Source of the DNA: Klebsiella pneumoniae
GTDB taxonomy: Bacteria > Pseudomonadota > Gammaproteobacteria > Burkholderiales > SG8-39
Direction: 5' to 3'
NCBI GenBank assembly: GCA_945906755.1
Contig: CAMDRJ010000001.1
Location: forward strand, 11,638 to 75,637
Length of the DNA stretch: 64,000 nucleotides
The position numbers and the translations under genes are program-made. Under the pieces are notes generated by a model. The model saw only the letters and a program-made list of their open reading frames with translations, was not told where the DNA came from and did not search any database. Below, piece after piece: positions 5,010 through 58,046 of this stretch (the stretch's first letter is position 1; each line of letters opens with the position of its first letter).

Positions 5010-6005
5010 ATGCGCGCCGTATGGTATGAAAAGCTCGGTCCAGCCGAGGCCGTGTTGCAGCTTGGAGCAATGCCGGATCCAACGCCGGGTCACGGGGAAG
5101 TCCGTGTTCGGATTGGGTTTTCTGGCGTCAACCCCTCCGACGTCAAGCGCCGTGCGGGGCCGGCGACCGCGGCCATCCCGTTTCCGCGCGTCATTCCAAA
5201 TCAAGATGGTGCTGGCATCATCGACGCGATCGGCGCCGGTGTCGATCCCAAGCGTGTTGGCGAGCGGGTATGGCTGCATAGCACCTGTTGGGGCCGGCCG
5301 TTCGGCACCGGCGCCGAGTGGGCGGTGACGCCTGATCACCGCGCGATCAAATTGCCGTCCAATGTGAGCCTCGCTGCTGGCGCTTCGTTGGGCGTGCCGG
5401 CACTCACTGCGCATCGCGCTCTATTTGGGCCCGGTTCGGTGGCAGGTAAAACGGTGTTAGTCACCGGCGGCGCTGGGGCAGTCGGGCTCTATGCGATTCA
5501 ACTTGCCAAATGGGCCGGTGCGCGTGTGATCACCAGCATCTCAAGCGATGAGAAGGCCACTCTAGCGCGTCAAGCGGGTGCCGATCATGTGGTGAACTAT
5601 CGCAAGGAGAATGTTGCGGAGCGCGTGCTTGCGCTGACTGGTCCGGTTGATCACATCGTCGAGGTCGATTTCGCCGCCAATATCGCCACGACGCTCAAGG
5701 TGATCAAGGGGAACGGCACGCTTTCGACCTATGCGTCGATGAGCGACCGCGAGCCCAAGATTCCGTTTTATGCACTGATGAACAAGAACATCAACGTGCT
5801 ATGGGTCACCGTGTACGATCTTACGCGCGAGGCACTCGATGTCGGCGCGCGCGATGTCAACGCGTGGCTTGCCACGGGTAAAGCAGTGTTCCCACCGTTT
5901 CATCCATTCGGCCTGGATGACATGGTCAAGGCGCACCTTGCAGTTGAACAAGGCGCCGTCGGCAAAGTCGTGGTCGCGGTCGGTGGCGAAAACGCCGGGC
6001 GTTGA
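5010..6005 (+). CDS. Zinc-independent MDR-family NADPH:quinone oxidoreductase
   Basis: 331 aa. N-terminal GHGEVRVRIGFSGVNPSDVKRRAG and the Rossmann motif VLVTGGAGAVG. Confidence 0.85.
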   Translation: MRAVWYEKLGPAEAVLQLGAMPDPTPGHGEVRVRIGFSGVNPSDVKRRAGPATAAIPFPRVIPNQDGAGIIDAIGAGVDPKRVGERVWLHSTCWGRPFGTGAEWAVTPDHRAIKLPSNVSLAAGASLGVPALTAHRALFGPGSVAGKTVLVTGGAGAVGLYAIQLAKWAGARVITSISSDEKATLARQAGADHVVNYRKENVAERVLALTGPVDHIVEVDFAANIATTLKVIKGNGTLSTYASMSDREPKIPFYALMNKNINVLWVTVYDLTREALDVGARDVNAWLATGKAVFPPFHPFGLDDMVKAHLAVEQGAVGKVVVAVGGENAGR

Positions 6006-6035
6006 AACGCGGCTCGGCATACAGAAGGAGTGGTA

Positions 6036-6692
6036 GTGATTTTCTATAGTACCGATGGCAATGGGCCCGGGTTCAAGGAACTTGGCTTCGCGCACAATCC
6101 ATTTCTTGCGCTGGTGGTGCCGCGCCCGATCGGTTGGATCAGCTCCGTCGATCAACATGGTGTCGTCAATCTCGCGCCGTTTTCGTTTTTCAACGCGGTT
6201 TCATCGCGCCCGCCGATGGTGTTTTTTGGCGCCAATGGCACGCACCTTACTGCTGGGGGCGAAAAAGATACGCTGCGCAATGTCAGAGAGACCGGCGAGT
6301 TCGTCGCCAATCTCGTGACCTGGGATCTGCGCCAGCAAATGAATGACAGCTCGGCGCCGGCCCCTCGCGATGTCGACGAAATGGATGCCGTGGGATTGGC
6401 GAAGCTGCCTTCGAAGTTCGTCAAAGCGCCGCGCGTGAAGGCATCGCCGGTACACTTCGAGTGCAAGCTCGTGCAGTTCGTCGAGCTGCCCACCGATCCG
6501 AAATCCGGCGAACAGAACACCATAACGATCGGGCGGGTGGTCGGTATCCACATCGACGAGCGGCTGGTCGCCGACGGCATGGTCGATATCACGAAGGCGC
6601 GGCCGGTCGCGCGGCTGGGCTATCTCGACTACACCGTGGTTGACGAAGTCTTCGCGATCAAACGACCGAGTTGGCCGATCAACAAATCCTGA
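6036..6692 (+). CDS. Flavin reductase-like (FMN-binding split-barrel) protein
   Basis: ORF 6030..6692. AAGGAG at 6025..6030 favours GTG 6036 as the start. LAPFSFFNAVSSRPPMVFF is typical of flavin reductase domain proteins. Confidence 0.85.
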   Translation: MIFYSTDGNGPGFKELGFAHNPFLALVVPRPIGWISSVDQHGVVNLAPFSFFNAVSSRPPMVFFGANGTHLTAGGEKDTLRNVRETGEFVANLVTWDLRQQMNDSSAPAPRDVDEMDAVGLAKLPSKFVKAPRVKASPVHFECKLVQFVELPTDPKSGEQNTITIGRVVGIHIDERLVADGMVDITKARPVARLGYLDYTVVDEVFAIKRPSWPINKS

Positions 6693-7961: not shown

Positions 7962-9308
7962 TTAGTTGCCTACAATAACTTTCGTTGAGAGCTCGGGCAG
8001 CCAGGTGGCGATACCCGGAAATATTACGATGCAAATGATGACGCCAAGCAGCCCCACCCAGTAAGGCGCCGAACCTCGGAAAATTTCTCCAACCGTCACA
8101 TTCTCTTCGGGCAGCGCCGCTTTGACGGTGAAGACGACCAGTCCAAAGGGCGGCGTCAGAAATCCGGTTTCGATCGCGAGGATACCAATCATCGCAAAGG
8201 CGAGCGGATCAAAACCAAGCGCTCCTGCGATCGGCGCGAACACCGGGACGGTAAGCAGGATGATCGAAATCGAGTCGATCAGACAGCCCAGCACAAACCA
8301 GATCAATACCATCAACGCGAGCACGCCGTAGGGTCCGAAGCCGGTCGCGAGGAACAGGTCCTGGGTCGCCTTGGTGACGCCTGTCATCGACAGCACACGC
8401 GAGTAAAGCTGCGCGGTGAAAAGAAGCAATAACAGCGGAGCGGAAGTGCGCCCCACCGACATCACCACTTCAAACATTTCGCGTGGCTTCATGCCTTTCA
8501 TCAACGCGAAGAGCAACGCGAGGACCGCACCGACGCCCGCGCCTTCGGTGGGCGTGAAAAATCCGAGCCAGATGCCGCCCAGAGTGAGAAAGACCACCGC
8601 GATAACGGTCATCGTGCTCCATGCGGCCTTGCCAACTTCGTGGGACGACAATTCCGCCGTCAGCTTGGCATGTGTTGGTCCGGCCCCCACGAGTTCCGGC
8701 TTCGTCATCGCCACCCAGAGGATATAGACCACGAAGAACGCCACGAGCACGAAGCCAGGCAGCACGCCGGCGAGAAATAGCTTGCCGATCGACTGTTCAG
8801 TGAGCACGCCCCACACGATCATCAATACCGATGGCGGGATCAGCATGCCAAGGCATGCGCTCCCAGCGATGCAGCCGAGCGCGAACTTACGGTTGTAGCC
8901 GTGACGTTTCATTTCCGGATAGGCAATGCGCGAGAATGCTGCCGCCGCCGCGATCGATACGCCGGTTACGAACGCAAAGACTGCATTCGCCAGAACTGTT
9001 GCGACGCCGAGCCGGCCGGGGATCCGCCGCGTGAGGCTGTTGATCAGCGCGAACATATCCCGTGCCGCACCGCACTTGGCGAGGAACTCGCCCATCAGCA
9101 TGAAGAGCGGAATCACGGCGAACACATAGTCACGCAGCGTCTCAAACGCGGTGTTGGCGACGAAGGTGCGGACCATGTCGATGTCGTGATTGATCAGATA
9201 GATCCCCACCGCTGCGGTGGTGCCAAGCGCCACGGCGAGGTGAACACCGAGAAACACCAGTGCGAGCAGCACACCGATCAGGATCGTCATTTCCATGTAA
9301 CCGAACAT
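7962..9308 (-). CDS. dctM: TRAP transporter large permease
   Basis: 448-aa polytopic membrane protein located directly downstream of the small permease. Confidence 0.9.
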   Translation of the reverse strand: MFGYMEMTILIGVLLALVFLGVHLAVALGTTAAVGIYLINHDIDMVRTFVANTAFETLRDYVFAVIPLFMLMGEFLAKCGAARDMFALINSLTRRIPGRLGVATVLANAVFAFVTGVSIAAAAAFSRIAYPEMKRHGYNRKFALGCIAGSACLGMLIPPSVLMIVWGVLTEQSIGKLFLAGVLPGFVLVAFFVVYILWVAMTKPELVGAGPTHAKLTAELSSHEVGKAAWSTMTVIAVVFLTLGGIWLGFFTPTEGAGVGAVLALLFALMKGMKPREMFEVVMSVGRTSAPLLLLLFTAQLYSRVLSMTGVTKATQDLFLATGFGPYGVLALMVLIWFVLGCLIDSISIILLTVPVFAPIAGALGFDPLAFAMIGILAIETGFLTPPFGLVVFTVKAALPEENVTVGEIFRGSAPYWVGLLGVIICIVIFPGIATWLPELSTKVIVGN

Positions 9309-21941: not shown

Positions 21942-22900
21942 GCGGTAATCCGCGTGCCGGCGCGTCCTTCAACCGCATCGAACGCCCGTTCGAGAGAAGT
22001 AATGAGCACGAGCTTGCCGCCTTGTTCGAGGTAGTTGATGGCGGCCTGAATCTTTGGGCCCATGCTGCCTGGTGGAAACTGGCCTTCCTCGAGATAGCGT
22101 CGTGCTTCGCTGACTGACATCGTGTCGAGGAAGCGCTGCGTGGGCTTGCCGAAGTCGATTGCCACGCGTTCAACGCCGGTCACCAGCAACAACGTATCAG
22201 CATTGATGGCCGCCGCCAGCAGCGCGCTCGTCAAATCCTTGTCGATGACCGCCGGCACGCCTTCCCAGGCACCGGAATCCAATCGAACCACCGGAATGCC
22301 ACCGCCGCCCGCCGCGATTGGGATGACATTCGCGCGGAGCAAGGCTTCGATCGCCGCGAGGTCCACGATCGACTTTGGCGCGGGCGATGCCACCACGCGA
22401 CGCCATCCGCGGCCGGAATCCTCGACGAACATCCAGCCGGTTTCTTCTTGCATGCGGCGCGCCTCGGCCTCTGCAAAGAATCTACCCACTGGTTTGGTGG
22501 GACTGGAGAATGCCGGATCATTCGGATCGACTTCCACCTGGGTGACCACCGAACAGGTCGGCGTTGCGATGCCGTGTTGGTGGAGCGTGTTGGTGAAGCT
22601 CTGTTGAAACATATAACCCATACCGCCTTGCGAATGGGCGACGCAGACATCCATTGGCATCGGCGGCAACTCGGTTGCGGTGCGCGCCATGCGAAAGAGG
22701 ATGTTGCCCACTACCGGGCCGTTGCCGTGGGTTAACACGAGTTTGTACCCTGACTGAATGATGCGTACCAGGTGCTCGCACAGCCCCGCCATGATGGCGA
22801 GCTGCTCATTGGCGGTGCCGCGAATCGTCGGCGGATAGCTTGCGTTACCACCTAGGGCAACGACGATGCGCTGTTCTCGCGAGCTGCCTTTGGCGGGCAT
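21938..22900 (-). CDS. arcC: Carbamate kinase
   Basis: 320 aa. VVALGGNA, LTHGNGPVVG and IAAGGGGIPV are carbamate kinase hallmarks. Confidence 0.9.
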   Translation of the reverse strand: MPAKGSSREQRIVVALGGNASYPPTIRGTANEQLAIMAGLCEHLVRIIQSGYKLVLTHGNGPVVGNILFRMARTATELPPMPMDVCVAHSQGGMGYMFQQSFTNTLHQHGIATPTCSVVTQVEVDPNDPAFSSPTKPVGRFFAEAEARRMQEETGWMFVEDSGRGWRRVVASPAPKSIVDLAAIEALLRANVIPIAAGGGGIPVVRLDSGAWEGVPAVIDKDLTSALLAAAINADTLLLVTGVERVAIDFGKPTQRFLDTMSVSEARRYLEEGQFPPGSMGPKIQAAINYLEQGGKLVLITSLERAFDAVEGRAGTRITA

Positions 22901-47845: not shown

Positions 47846-47943
47846 CCTGAGCGGTGCTTTCTCAGGTAAAAGAAAAGGGTGTAACGGGCCCTGCGGGGCG
47901 CGTTACACCTTTCACCTCGCGTACCTCGATCCGATGAAAGGTG
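47846..47943 (+). promoter_or_regulatory. Structured gcvT leader with mutually exclusive hairpins; the last one sequesters the SD/start
   Basis: cctgag/ctcagg (47846-51 / 47861-66). ggtgtaacg/cgttacacc (47878-86 / 47901-09). cacctttca/tgaaaggtg (47906-14 / 47935-43). Stems 2 and 3 share cacc, and stem 3 covers aaagg and the GTG. Confidence 0.35.
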
Positions 47944-49064
47944 CCGATGTCCGATCCCGTTGAGACGCTACTCGTCACACCGCTGAACGCGTTGCATCGC
48001 GCGCTTGGCGCAAGGCTCGTGCCTTTCGCCGGCTATGCGATGCCGGTGCAGTTTCCTGCCGGTATCCTCGCCGAGCACCTCCATACACGCACCAAGGCCA
48101 GCCTGTTCGATGTCTCGCATATGGGCCAGATTCGTTTGTCCGGGCCGGATGCCGCAGCGAGCCTGGAATCACTCGTGCCGGCCGATATCATCGGGTTGCC
48201 TGCCGGTCGGCAGCGCTATACCTATTTCACCAATGACGCCGGTGGCATCGAGGACGATCTGATGGTTGCCAACACCGGCGATGCACTCATGCTGGTGGTC
48301 AACGCCTCACGCAAAGCCAACGATCTTGCCTGGCTGCGGTCGCGAATCGGCAACCGCTGTCAGATTGAACCAATGGCTGATCGCGCCTTGCTTGCCTTGC
48401 AGGGCCCGGCGTCTGCGCGCGTGCTGGCGCGCCTTGTTCCGTCGGTCGCGGCGATGCGCTTCATGCAAGTCGCGCCGGCGACCGTCGATGGCATCGAGCT
48501 TTCACTGTCACGTTCTGGCTACACCGGCGAGGATGGCTTTGAGATCAGCGTGCGAGCGATGCGGAGCGCTTGGCCAAACGATTGCTCGCCGATGACGATG
48601 TTGCGCCCGCCGGCTTGGGCGCGTGGGATTCGTTGCGCCTGGAAGCGGGCCTGTGTCTGTATGGCCACGATATCGGCGCGACCATCTCACCGGTCGAAGC
48701 CGCGCTTGAATGGGCGATTCAAAAAGTGCGCCGGAACGGCGGTGCACGCGTCGGTGGGTTCCCCGGTGCGGCAATCATCTTGCAGCAGATCGAGCAAGGA
48801 ACCGCGCGTCGTCGAGTCGGACTGATCCCCGATGGCCGCGCGCCGATCCGCGAGGGCGAGGCCTTGTTCGATAGCGAACAACGCCACGTCGGCCGGGTCA
48901 CCAGCGGCGGATTCGGCGCATCGGTGAATGGCCCGATCGCGATGGCCCTCGTCGAAACCAAATATGCCGCGCCCGGACTTACTTTGACGGCGGTCGTTCG
49001 TGACCGACCACGCCCATGCCGCGTTGTCGCGTTGCCGTTTGTGCCACATCAATACTGTCGGTAA
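47941..49064 (+). pseudogene. gcvT: Glycine cleavage system aminomethyltransferase (T protein), disrupted by a -1 frameshift
   Basis: The N-terminal part is in the frame of ORF 47941..48825 up to ...GYTGEDGFEISVRA. The C-terminal part is in the frame of ORF 48570..49064 (DAERLAKRLLA...LRLEAGLCLYGHDI...). The frames meet at about 48558 with one nucleotide missing. Confidence 0.85.
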
Positions 49065-49486: not shown

Positions 49487-52390
<2,904 letters not shown>

Positions 52391-52392
<2 letters not shown>

Positions 52393-52561
52393 AGGGGGAC
52401 GCTACCATTTATTAGTCCTGCTCTTTCCTCGGTCGTCCACGTGGACGAAATTGCAGCGCTTGCCCTGTCAGCTGCTCGGAAATAAAGGGGAGAAATAAAG
52501 GGGACGCTTCCACTTTGTAAATAAAAGGGACGGTTCCATTTAATGGAGTGATAAAATGGAA
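52391..52561. repeat. Array of REP-like AAAGGGGACG(C/T)T(A/T)CC units plus an orphan copy of the RAYT gene 3' end
   Basis: Units at 52391..52410, 52497..52516 and 52523..52542, with a partial unit at 52484..52492. 52391..52479 aligns with 54824..54911 (by eye roughly 85-90 % identical) and still encodes LTGQALQFRPRGRPRKEQD-stop on the minus strand. Confidence 0.8.
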
Positions 52562-52677
52562 GCCGGTATCAGGCCCTACCCTTTGCCATCCGAATCGGTC
52601 GTGCACTTGTCTACGAATGGCGGCGTACGCGTGGGTGTGATGTCGCTGAAAATCGGCGCGAATAGCCGCGCAAAGGC

Positions 52678-53364
52678 CTACTCGATGCGTTCATATGCCG
52701 GCAGGGTTAGGAATTCCACATACTCACCAACGGTGATTCTCTCGAAGAGCTGCGCGCCTTCTTCATATTTCCCGGCGCGCCAGGCTTCCTCGCCCAGATA
52801 AGCGCGCACCTTCGGCAGTTCTTCGGCGAGCAGTTGGCGGAACAGCTCCACTGTTACCTTGCGGCCATCGTCCAGCACGCCCTTGGTTGAGCGGATCCAC
52901 TGCCAGATCTGTGAGCGCGAGATCTCGGCGGTCGCGGCGTCCTCCATCAGGTTGAACACCGGCACGCAACCATTGCCGGCGAGCCACGCGCCCAAGTATT
53001 GAATGCCCACCGAGATGTTGTTGCGCAAGCCCGCCTCGGTGATCGGCGTCGAGGGCCGGAAGTCGAGCAGATCTTTCGCCGACACATTGACGTCGGGGCG
53101 TTGCTTGCCGTATTGGTTGCGCGCCGGCATGTGCTGGTCGAACACCGCCTTCGCGACCGGCACCAGCGCCGGATGCGCGACCCACGTACCGTCGCAACCG
53201 TCGGTGACTTCGCGCAGCTTGTCTTGGCGCACTTTGTCGAGAGCTGCTTCATTGGCCGCAGGATCGTTCTTGATCGGGATCTGCGCAGCCATGCCGCCCA
53301 TTGCCGGTGCATTGCGACGATGACAGGTCTTCACGAGCAAGAGCGCATAGGCGCGCATGAACGG
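52678..53364 (-). pseudogene. aceB: Malate synthase A, C-terminal fragment only (5'-truncated)
   Basis: FMRAYALLLVKTCHRRNAPAMGGMAAQIP ... DGTWVAHP ... NLMEDAATAEISRSQIWQW ... FLTLPAYERIE corresponds to roughly the last 40 % of malate synthase A. Nothing resembling the N-terminal part lies upstream. Confidence 0.85.
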
Positions 53365-53447
53365 TGTGCAAGCACCACGGGCTCGCGTTGCGCTGGTTCG
53401 ATCGCAAGCCCGTGCTGGCACGCGACAACGACCGCGAAGTGCAGAGC

Positions 53448-54425
53448 ATGATGCGATCGTTCTTCGAGTCGCCCGGCACGATCTTTCTTAATCGGGCCCT
53501 GCAGAACGACTCGGCGCGATTGAAATTCGATTTAGCCTCCCACCTGGCCCACAAGATTTTGCATGGCGGCGACGGGCTCAAGTCGCCGCATGCCACTGGT
53601 GGTCAAATGGGCGGGAGCCCCGCGGGCGTGCAGGTTGCAGCGAGCATGAGCCCGCAGGATGTCTTACATGCATGGCGGGATTTCGAATGCAGTTTCTTTG
53701 CCGGCGCGCTGCTTGCGCCCAAGGCGCCGTTTCGCCGTTTTCTCGCGCGCGAGTCGTACCGTGTGGAAGCAGGCGAGAAGATCGAGCTCACCCCTGCGGT
53801 GGTGATGCGCCGCATGACGAAGGTCTCACCCTATCCATACTGGCATTTCTTCGATGCCTATCCGCCCGGATATCTACGCGCGGTCTATCGCGGCAACGGC
53901 ATTCCGCTGCCCTGGGGAAACATGGCGCAGGTGTCCGACCCATGCCCCAATTGGGCGGTGTTCCGCATGCTCGGGGCGAGCCGCGGCGCGGACCGTGGTT
54001 CCCAGATTTCGGTGCTGCTCGATGGCGATCAAGCGCACCTCTATTGTTGTCACTCACGCCGCACCACTGACATGGCCGGCAATTCGCATGTGCTGTCAGT
54101 GGGCGTGGATCTCTCCCCGGCGCTGGATTCACACGGGGCGGAGGCGAAGAGCGTGGTGAAAAGCATCGCGGAGGCCTGCTTGCAGCATCACGGCGAAGCG
54201 AAAATTCCCAAGGCTGCAGAGGAGGCGATCCGGGCGGTGGCGAAGGTTCTCAACGTCGCGTGGGTCGAAGAAGCACTGACCAAGCCCGCCCGCATCATCT
54301 GCCCGCGCAGCATGCATTGCCCAAGGACAGAGCACTGTGATGGCACAGAGATGTCGCGGGCGCGCGAGATCACCGATGTGCGCGAAGAGATCGTCGGACG
54401 TTCGCGGCGGGGGCGTCAGGCGTAG
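53448..54425 (+). pseudogene. ScfR/RamB/PrpR-like regulator (ImmA-like plus DUF2083-type C-terminal region) lacking the N-terminal XRE HTH; probably 5'-truncated
   Basis: Blocks FFAGALLAPKAPFRRFL, VVMRRMTKV, DPCPNWAVFRML and the C-terminal Cys cluster CPRSMHCPRTEHC parallel the family. No HTH is encoded, and the ORF begins within about 80 nt of the aceB fragment end. Confidence 0.5.
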
Positions 54426-54439
54426 CAAGAGTTTTCGCG

Positions 54440-54790
54440 TCAGGTTGCCCAGACTTTCAATGAGCAATGCGATGCCGCATGGACAAAGTCATTGTCAGTC
54501 GTCAGCAGCGTCAGGTCATGGCGGATGCAGAGCTGCGCCAGCAAAGCATCGATAGTCCCGATCTGCACGCCTGCGCGGCGGCACAAGTTGCGCAACTGCG
54601 CGGCGTCGATATGATCTTGCCAGTCCGGGCTGAGGAGCGGCAATGCGGCAAATCGTTCGACAATGGCCTTGCGCGAGCGTGGGCCGGCAAAACCCTGCAG
54701 TAACTCCTGCAGAACGAGCCCGGTCGTGACGACGATTTCCTCACCGACCAGCGCTGTACGCAGAGCCTGGACTTGAGGCGAATTGGACAG
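54440..54790 (-). pseudogene. vapC: PIN-domain VapC toxin, 5'-truncated (no start codon, first catalytic Asp region and antitoxin missing)
   Basis: Minus-strand translation LSNSPQVQALRTALVGEEIVVTTGLVLQELLQGF...IGTIDALLAQLCIRHDLTLLTTDNDF is VapC-like. The reading frame runs into the REP units at 54798..54842 with no ATG/GTG/TTG before 54643. Confidence 0.7.
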
Positions 54791-54797
54791 CGGGGAA

Positions 54798-55577
54798 AAA
54801 GGGGACGTGGAAAAAGGGTGGGAAAAAGGGGACGTTACCCTTAATCCTGCTCCTTCCTCGGTCGTCCCCGGGGACGGAATTGCAGCGCTTGGCCCGTCAG
54901 CTTCTCCAATTTGCCGATAAATCGCGCTGAGCCGCAGGGCAGACCTCTATCAACATTTCGCCGCAGCACTTCGAGTTCCTGTGGTTCATCGCCCTCGGCC
55001 AGCCAGTTCGACCAGTTGCCGATCCCGTCGAATTGCCTGCGCCAGGAGGCGACGTTGGTCAGAACCGAATCAGCGCGCAATCCACAGTGCGCAGCGGCGC
55101 TGGACCAGTGATAGTTCTCGGCCTTGCGGACAATTTTCGCTCGGACCGGATTGCGTTCGACGTAGCGAATGGCGGCCCACAGATATTCCTCGTCGAGTGC
55201 CGACGAGAAGAATCGCCCTTGCCACAGATGGCCCTTCCAGCCGTGGCTGCGATTGACGCGCTGCGCATAACGCATGTGCAGCGGCTTGAGTACTTGGTGC
55301 AAGCCGTCTTCAGTTCCTGGCACTGCGACGAGATGGATATGATTGTCCATCAGACAGTACGCGAGCACCTCGACCTCGTGTTGCTCGGCGTAGGCCTTTA
55401 GCCAGCCAAGATAAGCTTCGCGGTCTTCATCGGTGAAAAACACAGGCTCGCGACGATTCCCCCGTTGCGTGATGTGGTGGGGTACAAGGGCACAGACGGC
55501 GCGGGCGAGTCTTGGCATAGCGGAGACGCCACCATGAAAGGTGAAAGCTGTGTAACTTAAAGGGTAACGTCCCCTTT
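54798..55577 (-). mobile_element. RAYT unit: IS200-like Y1 transposase gene bracketed by inverted REP-like elements
   Basis: The 18-nt core aaaggggacgttaccctt (54825..54842) and its exact reverse complement (55560..55577) flank the gene. There is an extra partial unit at 54798..54810. The left core overlaps the TAA stop. Confidence 0.8.
54841..55518 (-). CDS. REP-associated tyrosine transposase (RAYT, IS200/IS605 Y1 superfamily)
   Basis: 225 aa. HHITQRGN, the HUH-type motif MDNHIHLV, and the Tyr region AAIRYVERNPVRA. Confidence 0.85.
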   Translation of the reverse strand: MPRLARAVCALVPHHITQRGNRREPVFFTDEDREAYLGWLKAYAEQHEVEVLAYCLMDNHIHLVAVPGTEDGLHQVLKPLHMRYAQRVNRSHGWKGHLWQGRFFSSALDEEYLWAAIRYVERNPVRAKIVRKAENYHWSSAAAHCGLRADSVLTNVASWRRQFDGIGNWSNWLAEGDEPQELEVLRRNVDRGLPCGSARFIGKLEKLTGQALQFRPRGRPRKEQD

Positions 55578-55840
55578 AACCCCGAAATAAATGCGGCCAA
55601 TCCACTTCAGCCTCCTCGTCGGCCGATAAAGCGCGCGCGGTGTGACGAAAGCGCAGGCCGTGGCCGGGAACGGTCAGCACCGCCTCGCGACCCAGCCGCT
55701 GGCGCAGCGATGCGGCCGGCACGTTCAAGTTGTTGTCGCATGCGACCGCAATCGACCACGGGTAGTTCTCCGCGCGATTGACGCGCAGGGCATATCGCGA
55801 ATGCGTGGCGCGAAGTAGCCTCTCTTCGCATGCGATGCCC
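55576..55840 (-). pseudogene. Degraded second RAYT copy (N-terminus and catalytic Tyr segment deleted)
   Basis: ...LLRATHSRYALRVNR-AENYPWSIAVAC... aligns with LKPLHMRYAQRVNR...[about 40 aa missing]...AENYHWSSAAAHC of the intact copy. No HUH motif. Confidence 0.55.
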
Positions 55841-55855
55841 CTTGCAACCGTTTCG

Positions 55856-56818
55856 CTAGTCGAGCCCCTTTGCCTTCGCAAACGCGCGCAGCTCGTCAAT
55901 GTCTTTCTTGTGTTTGGATGCGCCCATCTCCCAGATGCTGTCGGCGAATACGCGCTGCACCTTCGCGGCTTGTTCTGGCCCCATTTGCACGATGGTCATG
56001 CCCTTTGCCAACAGCTCTTTCTCTTCATTGGCGATGATGCCTCTCACCGTGTCAAACCAGCGCAGTTCCGCTTTGCGTGCTTCGTCGAGAAAAATTTTCT
56101 GATCGGCCGCGCTGATCTTGTTCCACGCGGCGAGATTGACGAGAATCGGAATCGTGCCGTAGCCAAACGCCGGACGGACCAGATGCTTTGACACCTCGTA
56201 GTAGCGGGCGTCCAGCACGCCGTAGGTGGGATAGGCGAAGCCGTCCACCACACCTTTGTCGAGTGCGGTGTAGATCTCCCCGACCGGCATCGTTACCACT
56301 GATGCGCCCATCATGCGGATCACGCCCGCGTACGCCGGGTTGCCGCGGATCTTGCGGCCTTGCAGATCACCCGCGGCGGTGAGCGGCTGGCGCACGACTA
56401 GCTGATAGCCGCCTTGCGGGGAAAACGCCACCGACAGCACCTTCAAGCCGATGCGGTTGTACATCTTGTCGACCAGATCGAAAATCCCGGAGGAGCGGCG
56501 CTGCTCAGGCGTGCCGCCCAGCGCATCGAGCGAACCAAGGATCGATGTGGTGCCGAAGTGATAGACGCCATGCGTGAAGAGGAACTGGAAAGCGCCCGAA
56601 GCGACCGGCTGCAGTTGTTCAAACGCGGGGACCGTTTCCGGCCCGCTTACGATGAACTTGATGCGGCCATTGGTCGCTGCTTCCACCGCTTTCATATACG
56701 GCTCGGCGTATTGCGGCACCTGCGGGCTGTTGCGATCCCAGCCGTTCAACCAGCGATAGTCGGCTGCCACGACGTTCTGCGCGGCGATGAGCAGCGCCAG
56801 CATCAACACTTTCTTCAT
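55856..56818 (-). CDS. TRAP-type (DctP family) substrate-binding protein, orphan
   Basis: 320 aa. Signal peptide MKKVLMLALLIAAQNVVA. Close paralog of the next gene. Confidence 0.85.
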   Translation of the reverse strand: MKKVLMLALLIAAQNVVAADYRWLNGWDRNSPQVPQYAEPYMKAVEAATNGRIKFIVSGPETVPAFEQLQPVASGAFQFLFTHGVYHFGTTSILGSLDALGGTPEQRRSSGIFDLVDKMYNRIGLKVLSVAFSPQGGYQLVVRQPLTAAGDLQGRKIRGNPAYAGVIRMMGASVVTMPVGEIYTALDKGVVDGFAYPTYGVLDARYYEVSKHLVRPAFGYGTIPILVNLAAWNKISAADQKIFLDEARKAELRWFDTVRGIIANEEKELLAKGMTIVQMGPEQAAKVQRVFADSIWEMGASKHKKDIDELRAFAKAKGLD

Positions 56819-56858
56819 GTCTCTCTCCTATTGTTTTATAGCCGCTGCCAAGTGCTGG

Positions 56859-57818
56859 TCAGAGCCCTTTTGATTTGGCCAACGCGCGCATTTCTTCGAT
56901 GTCTTTTTTCGACTTCTGCATCGACAACTCCCAAAGCCCCTCGGCCCATGCGTCTTTCAGCTTGGCCTTCTGTGCGGCACCCATCTCGACGATCTGCATG
57001 CCTTTGGCGACCAGGGCCTTGTCTTCTTCCTCGGCGAGGCGGGCGTATTCCCGATACCAGATCGCCTCGTATTTCTTGCCGACATCGGTGAGGATTTTTT
57101 TCTCGGACTCAGAGAGCCTGTTCCAGGCCTGCAGATTCATGAAGATCGGATTCATGTTGAAACCAAACGATGGTCGCAACACGTATTTCGCCACCTCATA
57201 CCAGCGATAGTTGAGCGGCCCGATCACCGGCCATGCAGCGCCATCGACCACGCCCTTATCGAGTGCCGTGTAGATTTCACCAGGGGGCATCTGTACCGGC
57301 GTTGCACCGAGCATCCGGAAAACGGCTGTATAGCTTGGGGTGCCGCGGATCTTGCGGCCTTGCAGATCACCGGCTGGGCTCGGCGGCTGGCGCAGCAAAA
57401 TGCCGTATCCTCCATCTGGGGTCATCGGCGAGGCGACCAGTTTGAGGCCAAGCTTCTGATAATGGCGGTCGATCCATTCCAGTACGCCCGATGCGCGCCG
57501 CGACTTCTCGTCCCCGCCGACCCCTTCAAACGCGGTCAGCACCGGCGTCGTGCCGAAGTGGTAGGCGCCATGGGTATAGAGAAAGTGGAAGGCGCCCGAG
57601 GCCACCGGCTGCAACTGCTCGAATGCCGGCACGGTTTCCGGTCCGCTGTGAAGGATCTTGATGCTGCCCTTCGAGGCCACCTCGACCTCCTTGATGAAGG
57701 GTTCGATGATGATCGGCATCGCCGGATAGTTTCTGTCCCAGCCGCTTAGCCAGCGATAATCGGCCGCGGCGACGGCTTGCGCAGACAACAGCAGCACCAG
57801 CATTACTACTCGCTTCAT
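56859..57818 (-). CDS. TRAP-type (DctP family) substrate-binding protein, orphan (tandem paralog)
   Basis: ORF 56859..57857; start MKRVVMLVLLLSAQAVAA (57818). Shares long identical blocks with its neighbour (SGPETVPAFEQLQPVASGAF). Confidence 0.85.
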   Translation of the reverse strand: MKRVVMLVLLLSAQAVAAADYRWLSGWDRNYPAMPIIIEPFIKEVEVASKGSIKILHSGPETVPAFEQLQPVASGAFHFLYTHGAYHFGTTPVLTAFEGVGGDEKSRRASGVLEWIDRHYQKLGLKLVASPMTPDGGYGILLRQPPSPAGDLQGRKIRGTPSYTAVFRMLGATPVQMPPGEIYTALDKGVVDGAAWPVIGPLNYRWYEVAKYVLRPSFGFNMNPIFMNLQAWNRLSESEKKILTDVGKKYEAIWYREYARLAEEEDKALVAKGMQIVEMGAAQKAKLKDAWAEGLWELSMQKSKKDIEEMRALAKSKGL

Positions 57819-58046
57819 ATACATCTCCTTTGTCTCGTCGTGCGATCGTGGTCGCATCGTCGCTTAGAACCCGGGCGGGGGCCGGGACGGTTTCCTTGCC
57901 AAGCGGAGTCTACCTAGTTTGGGGAATTGAGAAGGCAGCGGCCGGCTCGGTCCTTCCGATGGGCAAACGCCCACGAGCCGACATGGTTGCTTGTCTGGTC
58001 GGGTGGCCCGACAATGCAGGTTCTTCTCAAGTCCTCAAATCATTCA

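Follow-up and report, generated by a model that had tools for sequence, protein, structure and literature searches.

Within a 64,000-nucleotide (nt) stretch of contig CAMDRJ010000001.1 (assembly GCA_945906755.1, positions 11,638–75,637; this whole stretch is referred to as the window), the gap between gcvP and a gene for a DctP solute-binding protein of the tripartite ATP-independent periplasmic (TRAP) type holds a nest of transposase genes, short repeats and broken host genes. The locus is very probably a REPtron or TIRtron, i.e., a single intact gene for a Y1 (HUH) transposase of the RAYT type (a tyrosine transposase linked to repetitive extragenic palindromes, REPs), framed by inverted copies of a cognate 19-nt hairpin with the stem AAAGGG/CCCTTT and the loop GACGYTA. 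Taken as a whole, the nest reads best as a REPtron/TIRtron of long residence, accompanied by debris from two earlier copies and located in a dispensable gap where ordinary deletions and rearrangements have also been gathering. Coordinates of all features are collected in Table 1.

Among NCBIfam models, the best match to the intact protein is REP_Tyr_transpos (REP-associated tyrosine transposase), with 70.3 bits against a curated cutoff of 80. In an alignment of 26 homologs, all family-invariant residues are retained in the window protein, including the HUH motif (H60-I-H62) and Tyr119 in the RYVERNP segment. Searching the Protein Data Bank (PDB) with the single sequence gave no match and a profile was needed; the profile made from the same alignment places Escherichia coli TnpA_REP (PDB code 4ER8) first with an E-value of 3.5e-4, and TnpA of ISDra2 narrowly second (6e-4). 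Homologs number in the thousands, the best 120 being 73–100% identical and nearly all 223–230 amino acids long. The window contains this one intact gene and two remnants, and no second intact or identical copy.

The 18-mer that overlaps the stop codon of the gene recurs as its exact reverse complement at 55560–55577, such that the intact gene is framed by inverted 18-mers. With up to three mismatches allowed, the 18-mer occurs three times in the window, compared with 0.01 occurrences expected by chance. A relaxed 14-mer scan recovers both flanking copies and units at 52393, 52498 and 52524, and a partial unit starts at 54798; the sole other match in the 64 kb is a three-mismatch match at 22694, which is at chance level. 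For the downstream hairpin (54825–54842), folding gives a stem of 5 bp, a loop of 7 nt and an energy of −4.9 kcal/mol; for the upstream hairpin (55559–55577), it gives a stem of 8 bp, again a loop of 7 nt, and −6.0 kcal/mol. REP1 overlaps the gcvP stop codon TAA (52390–52392), and shares one orientation with all units of the array at 52479–52541; the units at 52391–52541 fold less well than the two hairpins around the intact gene. In these respects the preliminary description of the locus stands: it had reported the exact inverted 18-mers at 54825–54842 and 55560–55577, related units at 52391, 52497, 52523 and 54798 and nowhere else in the window (all comparable units fall within 52391–52541 and 54793–54842), and a first unit starting inside the gcvP stop codon, and the folding that it proposed yields hairpins for both units of the live gene. 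Scanning the region for Rfam families and tRNAs gave no match, and therefore points to no known RNA family or tRNA integration site, and a literature search for the repeat sequence returned only an unrelated primer match.

The same architecture is found in the homologs. We surveyed 80 metagenome loci with RAYT homologs, and read the flank layout where both flanks are on the contig. At about 58% identity or above, nearly every homolog with both flanks present has a hairpin 25–50 nt upstream of the ATG, and an inverted one no more than about 25 nt past the stop codon; on both flanks, the hairpins thus occupy the same positions relative to the gene as in the window. The consensus hairpin, AAAGGGGACGCTACCCTTT, has the stem AAAGGG/CCCTTT and the loop GACGCTA. 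Homologs below about 55% identity lack the consensus motif, and are flanked by related hairpins of GGGGACA type, for example AAATAGGGACACTTCCTATTT and ATAGGGGACAGTCACCTAT. The two hairpins of the live gene in the window read GACGTTACCC (GACGT), and nearly all hairpins that flank homologs read GACGCTACCC (GACGC). The substitution affects the C in the C|T dinucleotide that E. coli TnpA_REP needs in order to cleave.

To map the spread of the hairpin, one genome per species was scanned with AAAGGGGACGYTWCCMYT, for which we estimate about 280 chance matches across the whole genome collection, and at least 120 matches were listed. The matches listed are overwhelmingly from Pseudomonadota, across Zeta-, Beta-, Gamma- and Alphaproteobacteria, with Mariprofundaceae, Nitrosomonas, Rhodoferax, Rhodospirillaceae, Hyphomicrobiales and Methylococcales among the taxa represented; the genome of the window itself is not among them. 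Many of the matches listed form plus/minus pairs (inverted doublets) 25–60 nt apart, and several genomes are hit on two or three contigs. Because a full RAYT homolog is present in only four of the 8-kb blocks around the matches listed, most of these hairpin copies are dispersed away from the gene. L127, which has the closest RAYT homolog among the Joint Genome Institute (JGI) contigs (76% identical), carries two 93%-identical elements of about 300 bp (5740–6045 and 8831–9125), bounded by 32-nt terminal inverted repeats (TIRs) that start with the hairpin, in the manner of a derivative resembling a miniature inverted-repeat transposable element. The motif is thus a true repeat, mobile or open to amplification, in genomes other than this one. 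An earlier suggestion that the REP family is lineage-specific has to be abandoned, since the same hairpin is scattered over the four proteobacterial classes and flanks homologs down to about 58% identity.

Comparison of the interval between gcvP and the TRAP receptor gene with a relative, as also advised in the preliminary description, bears on the age of the element. The JGI contig L126 is syntenic on both sides at about 80–82% nt identity (window 63994–55852 and 52385–49279), and synteny stops at the stop codons of DctP (55852–55857) and gcvP (52385). The L126 interval, 6.9 kb in length, contains five genes foreign to the window (an AlkZ-like gene, a major facilitator superfamily transporter, a reductase of the old yellow enzyme type, and two TctC genes), and none of the interval genes of the window is present. 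Because L126 carries five different genes there, interval turnover is real, as had been claimed for the locus. Five nucleotides after the gcvP stop codon, at the position orthologous to REP1, L126 has an exact AAAGGGGACGTTACC, and it also keeps a 47-nt RAYT fragment with 91% nt identity to the window gene (residues 173–188). A match to 'RPRGRP' in L126 was rejected as chance, since it is on the wrong strand with an E-value of 6.5. From the hairpin and the RAYT fragment it follows that the element already occupied the gap when the two lineages split, and that it was lost in the L126 lineage and kept in that of the window. L124, which by DctP is the nearest relative (87% nt identity), likewise loses synteny at 55852–55857; only 346 nt of unrelated sequence follow DctP before the contig ends, and it offers no view of the interval.

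Two older transposase copies lie beside the live one. Remnants were ranked with the RAYT profile over all six-frame segments of the window. Remnant A is 88% identical at the nucleotide level to 54841–54906, and is recovered in the window with E-values of 3e-8 (tblastn) and 1.4e-5 (RAYT profile). Over the last 19 codons, all seven differences from the intact copy are synonymous third-position changes; for all seven to be at third positions by chance, the probability is about 5e-4. This agrees with the earlier description of an orphan 3' end with synonymous differences throughout, derived from a second, once-functional paralog; the divergence is of the type left by purifying selection, and supports an origin of remnant A from a diverged copy that was once under such selection.

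Remnant C is a more difficult case. It aligns in three colinear blocks with residues 74–94, 127–143 and 207–226 of the RAYT homolog P0081, and by tblastn with residues 75–94 and 130–143 of the intact copy. Two nucleotide matches to the intact gene, one of 25 nt (88%) and one of 20 nt (80%), share a frame; they are adjacent in the remnant and 126 nt apart in the intact gene, the in-frame gap removing the segment with the catalytic tyrosine. Remnant C ranks third among the six-frame segments of the window with an E-value of 0.11, and its score is exceeded by one of 500 shuffles. It has no Pfam or NCBIfam match and no match to other loci, and the identification rests on the short colinear blocks. 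The earlier claim of a third copy without the HUH and Tyr regions is thereby extended by the colinear blocks and the 126-nt in-frame gap, while the identification itself is lowered to probable: remnant C is probably a badly decayed RAYT copy that lacks both segments. The three copies share one orientation, and each has a hairpin at its 3' end.

Partial or second RAYT copies also occur about 1–3 kb from an intact RAYT gene in L141 (8785–9045), L149 (1906–2124), L189 (11925–13697) and L199 (281–601), and nests of decayed copies accordingly recur in the family. A sequence variant with TTCCAYTT is common to REP2 and REP3 (52497–52541) and to the sequence resembling a repeat with which remnant C ends on its 3' side (55584–55607), and resembles the hairpins of much more distant RAYT homologs (GGGACACTTCCTATTT). 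This variant hints at a second and older repeat type at the locus. REP2, REP3 and remnant C were also considered as a separate second RAYT/hairpin system, for which no supporting homology was found.

Table 1. Features of the gcvP-to-DctP locus, in window coordinates
Feature	Position	Strand	Remarks
gcvP (glycine dehydrogenase)	49487..52392	+	Conserved left flank; Pfam GDC-P
REP1, AAAGGGGGACGCTACCATT	52391..52409	+	Decayed 3'-flanking hairpin of remnant A; folds weakly (−1.5 kcal/mol)
RAYT remnant A	52412..52480	-	Last ~21 codons and stop codon of a diverged transposase copy
Repeat array	52479..52541	+	Truncated unit GAAATAAAGGGGA (52479–52491), then REP2 and REP3
REP2, AAAGGGGACGCTTCCACTTT	52497..52516	+	Variant type with TTCCAYTT
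REP3, AAAAGGGACGGTTCCATTT	52523..52541	+	Variant type with TTCCAYTT
Malate synthase A pseudogene	52678..53364	-	C-terminal half only; profile positions 283–510 of 511
DUF3612/XRE-family regulator pseudogene	53365..54425	+	Lacks ~170 N-terminal residues including the helix-turn-helix (HTH); Pfam DUF3612
vapC (PIN toxin) pseudogene	54440..54790	-	Lacks ~15 N-terminal residues and any start codon; 5' break abuts repeats
27-nt stutter, truncated repeat GGGAAAAAGGGGACGT and GGAAAAAGGGT	54793..54819	+	Duplicates the 5' part of the next unit
3'-flanking hairpin of intact RAYT gene, AAAGGGGACGTTACCCTT	54825..54842	+	Overlaps the stop codon of the gene by 2 nt
Intact RAYT-type Y1/HUH transposase gene	54841..55518	-	225 amino acids; Pfam Y1_Tnp PF01797, E 1e-14
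5'-flanking hairpin of intact RAYT gene, AAAGGGGACGTTACCCTTT	55559..55577	-	41 nt upstream of the ATG
RAYT remnant C (probable)	55576..55840	-	Heavily decayed, without HUH region; repeat-like sequence at 3' end (55584–55607)
TRAP-type DctP solute-binding protein gene	55856..56818	-	Conserved right flank; Pfam DctP

Truncated repeat units are a recurrent trait of these loci. The 27-nt stutter beside vapC is missing from L003, a contig from another sample that is otherwise 100% identical over the aligned length (1190–1231, compared with window 54793–54835), which makes the stutter a polymorphism of the population. Truncated 5' parts of the hairpin, together with 3–6 nt of 5' flank, stand in tandem directly upstream of a full same-strand hairpin in more than 20 unrelated genomes (examples are L008, L025, L028, L065, L088, L118, L207 and L212). 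Most of the truncated units break off behind GGGGA or GACGC, and both types are found in the window (52479–52491 and 54793–54819). Near a full unit, orphan 5' halves number 31 compared with eight 3' halves, the latter being point-mutated full units. The position between GACGC and TAC corresponds to the site between C and TAC that is cut by E. coli TnpA_REP. The truncated units could be a cleavage footprint or, equally, a product of hairpin-induced replication slippage. One might go further and take the stutters as in vivo footprints of loop cleavage and strand transfer by the RAYT, the GACGT hairpins as cleavage-dead, and the gap as a long-lived 'home' of the transposase; cleavage-dead hairpins would then account for a repeat that has not spread in this genome even though the gene is kept. 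If this doubtful proposal were true, successive transposase copies would replace one another in the gcvP-to-DctP gap and trap fragments of host genes.

For a mechanism, E. coli TnpA_REP and IS608 TnpA can serve as models. The hairpin would be recognized by the enzyme as single-stranded DNA; a cut close by, by way of a 5'-phosphotyrosine intermediate, would be followed by rejoining of the strands, and in this manner DNA between hairpins could be copied, deleted or amplified in tandem. The element has resided in the gcvP-to-DctP gap since before the split from the relative at about 80% identity, and beside the live copy two older ones have decayed, both of them with a 3' hairpin. Meanwhile, the gap has lost its original genes and gained fragments from elsewhere, namely aceB with its regulator, and vapC.

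Several observations weigh against the reading of the locus as a REPtron/TIRtron whose transposase has shaped it. The NCBIfam RAYT score is under its curated cutoff, and the folding energies of the short flanking hairpins are only about two standard deviations better than those of shuffles, which is no more than hairpins of this length should give. No copy was found outside the locus in the other ~60 kb of the window, nor in 11.3 kb of L124, and the one copy in 21 kb of L126 lies beside gcvP; for this organism, as covered by the window, L124 and L126, the trait of being repeated throughout the genome, which defines REPs, is not seen. The GACGT loop of the live-gene hairpins could impair cleavage if the rule of a cut between C and T in E. 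coli applied. Furthermore, at least three junctions are without a repeat (53364/53365, and both deletions inside remnant C), and RAYT activity is for that reason not needed to explain all the damage. Absence of the hairpin from the rest of the window argues against a high-copy repeat family here, and by our own estimate, given zero copies in ~60 kb, a 3.5-Mb genome is unlikely to contain above about 175. Nor does the window contain an inverted REP doublet (REPIN), the units at 52391–52541 all being direct.

The strongest alternative is that ordinary recombination, illegitimate or homologous, and general gene decay broke the host genes and replaced the interval, with the transposase and hairpins as bystanders in a permissive, non-essential gap. 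We consider this a serious contender, if somewhat less probable than its opposite. The aceB/regulator junction speaks in its favour: window 52694–53364 corresponds to L214 7170–7840 (83% identity) and window 53365–54397 to L214 10515–11547, and the malate synthase and regulator fragments were therefore joined by a clean 2,674-bp deletion at 53364/53365, where no repeat unit is found. The in-frame internal deletions of remnant C are likewise free of repeats, and no transposition intermediate or target duplication is seen at the locus. Outside the nest, gcvP is frameshifted near 49831 (tblastn with the intact 970-residue GcvP of L126 splits into frames 2 and 1), and gcvT (47941–49064) also appears frameshifted, near 48556–48575, which suggests decay beyond the nest; these frameshifts could be real decay or assembly errors. 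Against the bystander explanation, repeat units are found at four junctions (at the 3' end of gcvP, on the inner side of remnant A, at the 5' end of vapC and where remnant C ends on its 3' side), the stutter beside vapC differs between samples of one strain, and RAYT debris beside live RAYT genes recurs in unrelated genomes. The preliminary description had placed every host-gene breakpoint at a REP unit, which does not hold for 53364/53365 or for the deletions inside remnant C. The data establish the family, the gene and hairpin layout common to the clade, the spread of the hairpin in other genomes, the debris of older copies and the replaced content of the interval; we infer that the transposase is active here, and that the breaks located at hairpins would be its work and not a product of ordinary recombination.

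A less probable alternative, which we regard as unlikely, is that the hairpin-gene-hairpin unit is an autonomous insertion sequence (IS) similar to IS200/IS605, which entered the gap in three separate insertions, perhaps targeting existing hairpins, two of the copies having decayed. The closest homologs (76–81% identity) are located in unrelated contexts, beside recA/alaS, RHS and accC, the three copies are co-oriented, each with a 3' hairpin, the synonymous divergence of remnant A is as expected for independent arrival, and RAYT groups 1 and 6 have been described as the most IS-like (PMC5581495). The window protein shares with the IS608 and ISDra2 TnpA proteins the Y1/HUH fold and motifs, and hairpin DNA as the presumed substrate. 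Unlike the ends of IS200/IS605 elements, where the hairpins are on the same strand, the flanking hairpins in the window are inverted. In addition, the NCBIfam IS200 model scores far below its cutoff (20.5 bits compared with 55), the window has one intact copy and no multiple identical ones, and a plasmid search found homologs only at 38% identity or less, with no relative above 40%. The debris at the same locus in L126 fits long residence better than repeated arrival. Finally, one could regard the units as A/G-rich sequence that matches by chance, and the inverted 18-mers as functionless, an idea to which the shortness of the units and their weak folding z-scores might lend some credit. It can be set aside, since three matches were found where 0.01 were expected and dozens of independent loci have the same 19-mer at an equal distance from the gene.

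The reference case for the REPtron arrangement is tnpA_REP (RAYT, yafM) of E. coli K-12, flanked by REPs or bacterial interspersed mosaic elements (BIMEs) (Nunvar 2010; Ton-Hoang et al. 2012, PMC3333891; Messing 2012, PDB code 4ER8). TnpA_REP binds single-stranded REPs, cuts between C and T via a covalent tyrosine intermediate, and is able to build tandem BIMEs by strand transfer (PMC3333891). As in that system, the window has a single Y1/HUH gene framed by inverted, short, imperfect palindromes, and 4ER8 is the closest solved structure by profile; tandem partial units lie beside full ones, comparable to the tandem BIMEs formed in vitro, and the bottom strand of the hairpin, GGGTAGCGTCCCC, contains the GTAG and CTAC tetranucleotides that are important in E. 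coli. The window protein is longer, with 225 residues compared with 165, and only distantly related (E 3.5e-4). Its hairpin of 19 nt has a 6-bp stem with GTAG in the loop, whereas GTAG forms a 5' tail in E. coli, and the dispersal at high copy number is not visible in the window genome.

In TIRtrons, RAYT-like genes (TIRYTs) are associated with terminal inverted repeats, some of which share GGGGWSAS at a fixed distance (Di Nocera et al. 2013, PMC3733652), and repeat copy number is low or zero in many TIRYT hosts, for example Accumulibacter (PMC3733652). The locus resembles TIRtrons in the longer RAYT-like protein, in inverted repeats whose spacing from the start and stop codons is conserved, and in the low or zero repeat copy number found in many of the host genomes. 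The repeat core is GGGGACGC/GGGGACGT in the window, and GGGGACAG or GGGACAC in more distant homologs; the window core fits GGGGWSAS, as given in the published description, at seven of eight positions. REPIN-RAYT systems are known from Pseudomonas and Enterobacteria (Bertels & Rainey 2011, PMC3116915; Bertels et al. 2017, PMC5581495), where only RAYT groups 2 and 3 have abundant repeats and some groups have only about 12–14 copies of the flanking 16-mer (PMC5581495). A low copy number in the window organism would fit such low-copy groups. Long residence at one locus, with debris at the orthologous locus in a relative, is shared with REPIN-RAYT systems, as is the occurrence of the same hairpin, in other genomes, as inverted doublets and in a 300-bp TIR-bounded element; the window itself differs in having no doublets and an apparently low copy number.

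The host genes in the interval are fragments. That of malate synthase A matches Pfam MS_TIM-barrel and MS_C, and scores 317 bits with TIGR01344 against a cutoff of 594. Full-length homologs of the DUF3612 regulator have 520–527 residues and include the HTH, and the native locus in relatives consists of aceB, a gene for a 369-residue protein and the regulator, near ntrBC-glnA. The vapC fragment covers positions 13–118 of 120 in the PIN profile and 16–125 of 125 in NCBIfam VapC, with no methionine in the translation, and no vapB is found beside it. Between the repeat array and the malate synthase stop codon, about 136 nt (52542–52677) have no match downstream of aceB in L214. Within this segment, 43 nt (52585–52627) are 72% identical to the 3' end of gcvP (52343–52385), a score reached by one of 500 shuffles, and they are possibly a decayed duplicate of the gcvP end, or a chance resemblance. 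On the right flank, two tandem paralogous DctP genes (55856–57857, with about 56% amino acid identity) are conserved in L124, L125 and L126.

The architecture is not special to this locus and matches the published REPtron/TIRtron class, and the result leaves current understanding unchanged. It adds a well-delimited example of the low-copy, long-protein RAYT-like branch, from an uncultured Burkholderiales-like betaproteobacterium, and shows that throughout a clade extending over several proteobacterial classes, one 19-nt hairpin next to the gene has hardly changed. The recurring truncated units are a cheap and testable lead to the cut site in this clade. Furthermore, the comparison of relatives shows that a locus of this kind can persist at one chromosomal position while its surroundings are replaced, which fits the view of RAYTs as long-term residents and not as hopping insertion sequences.

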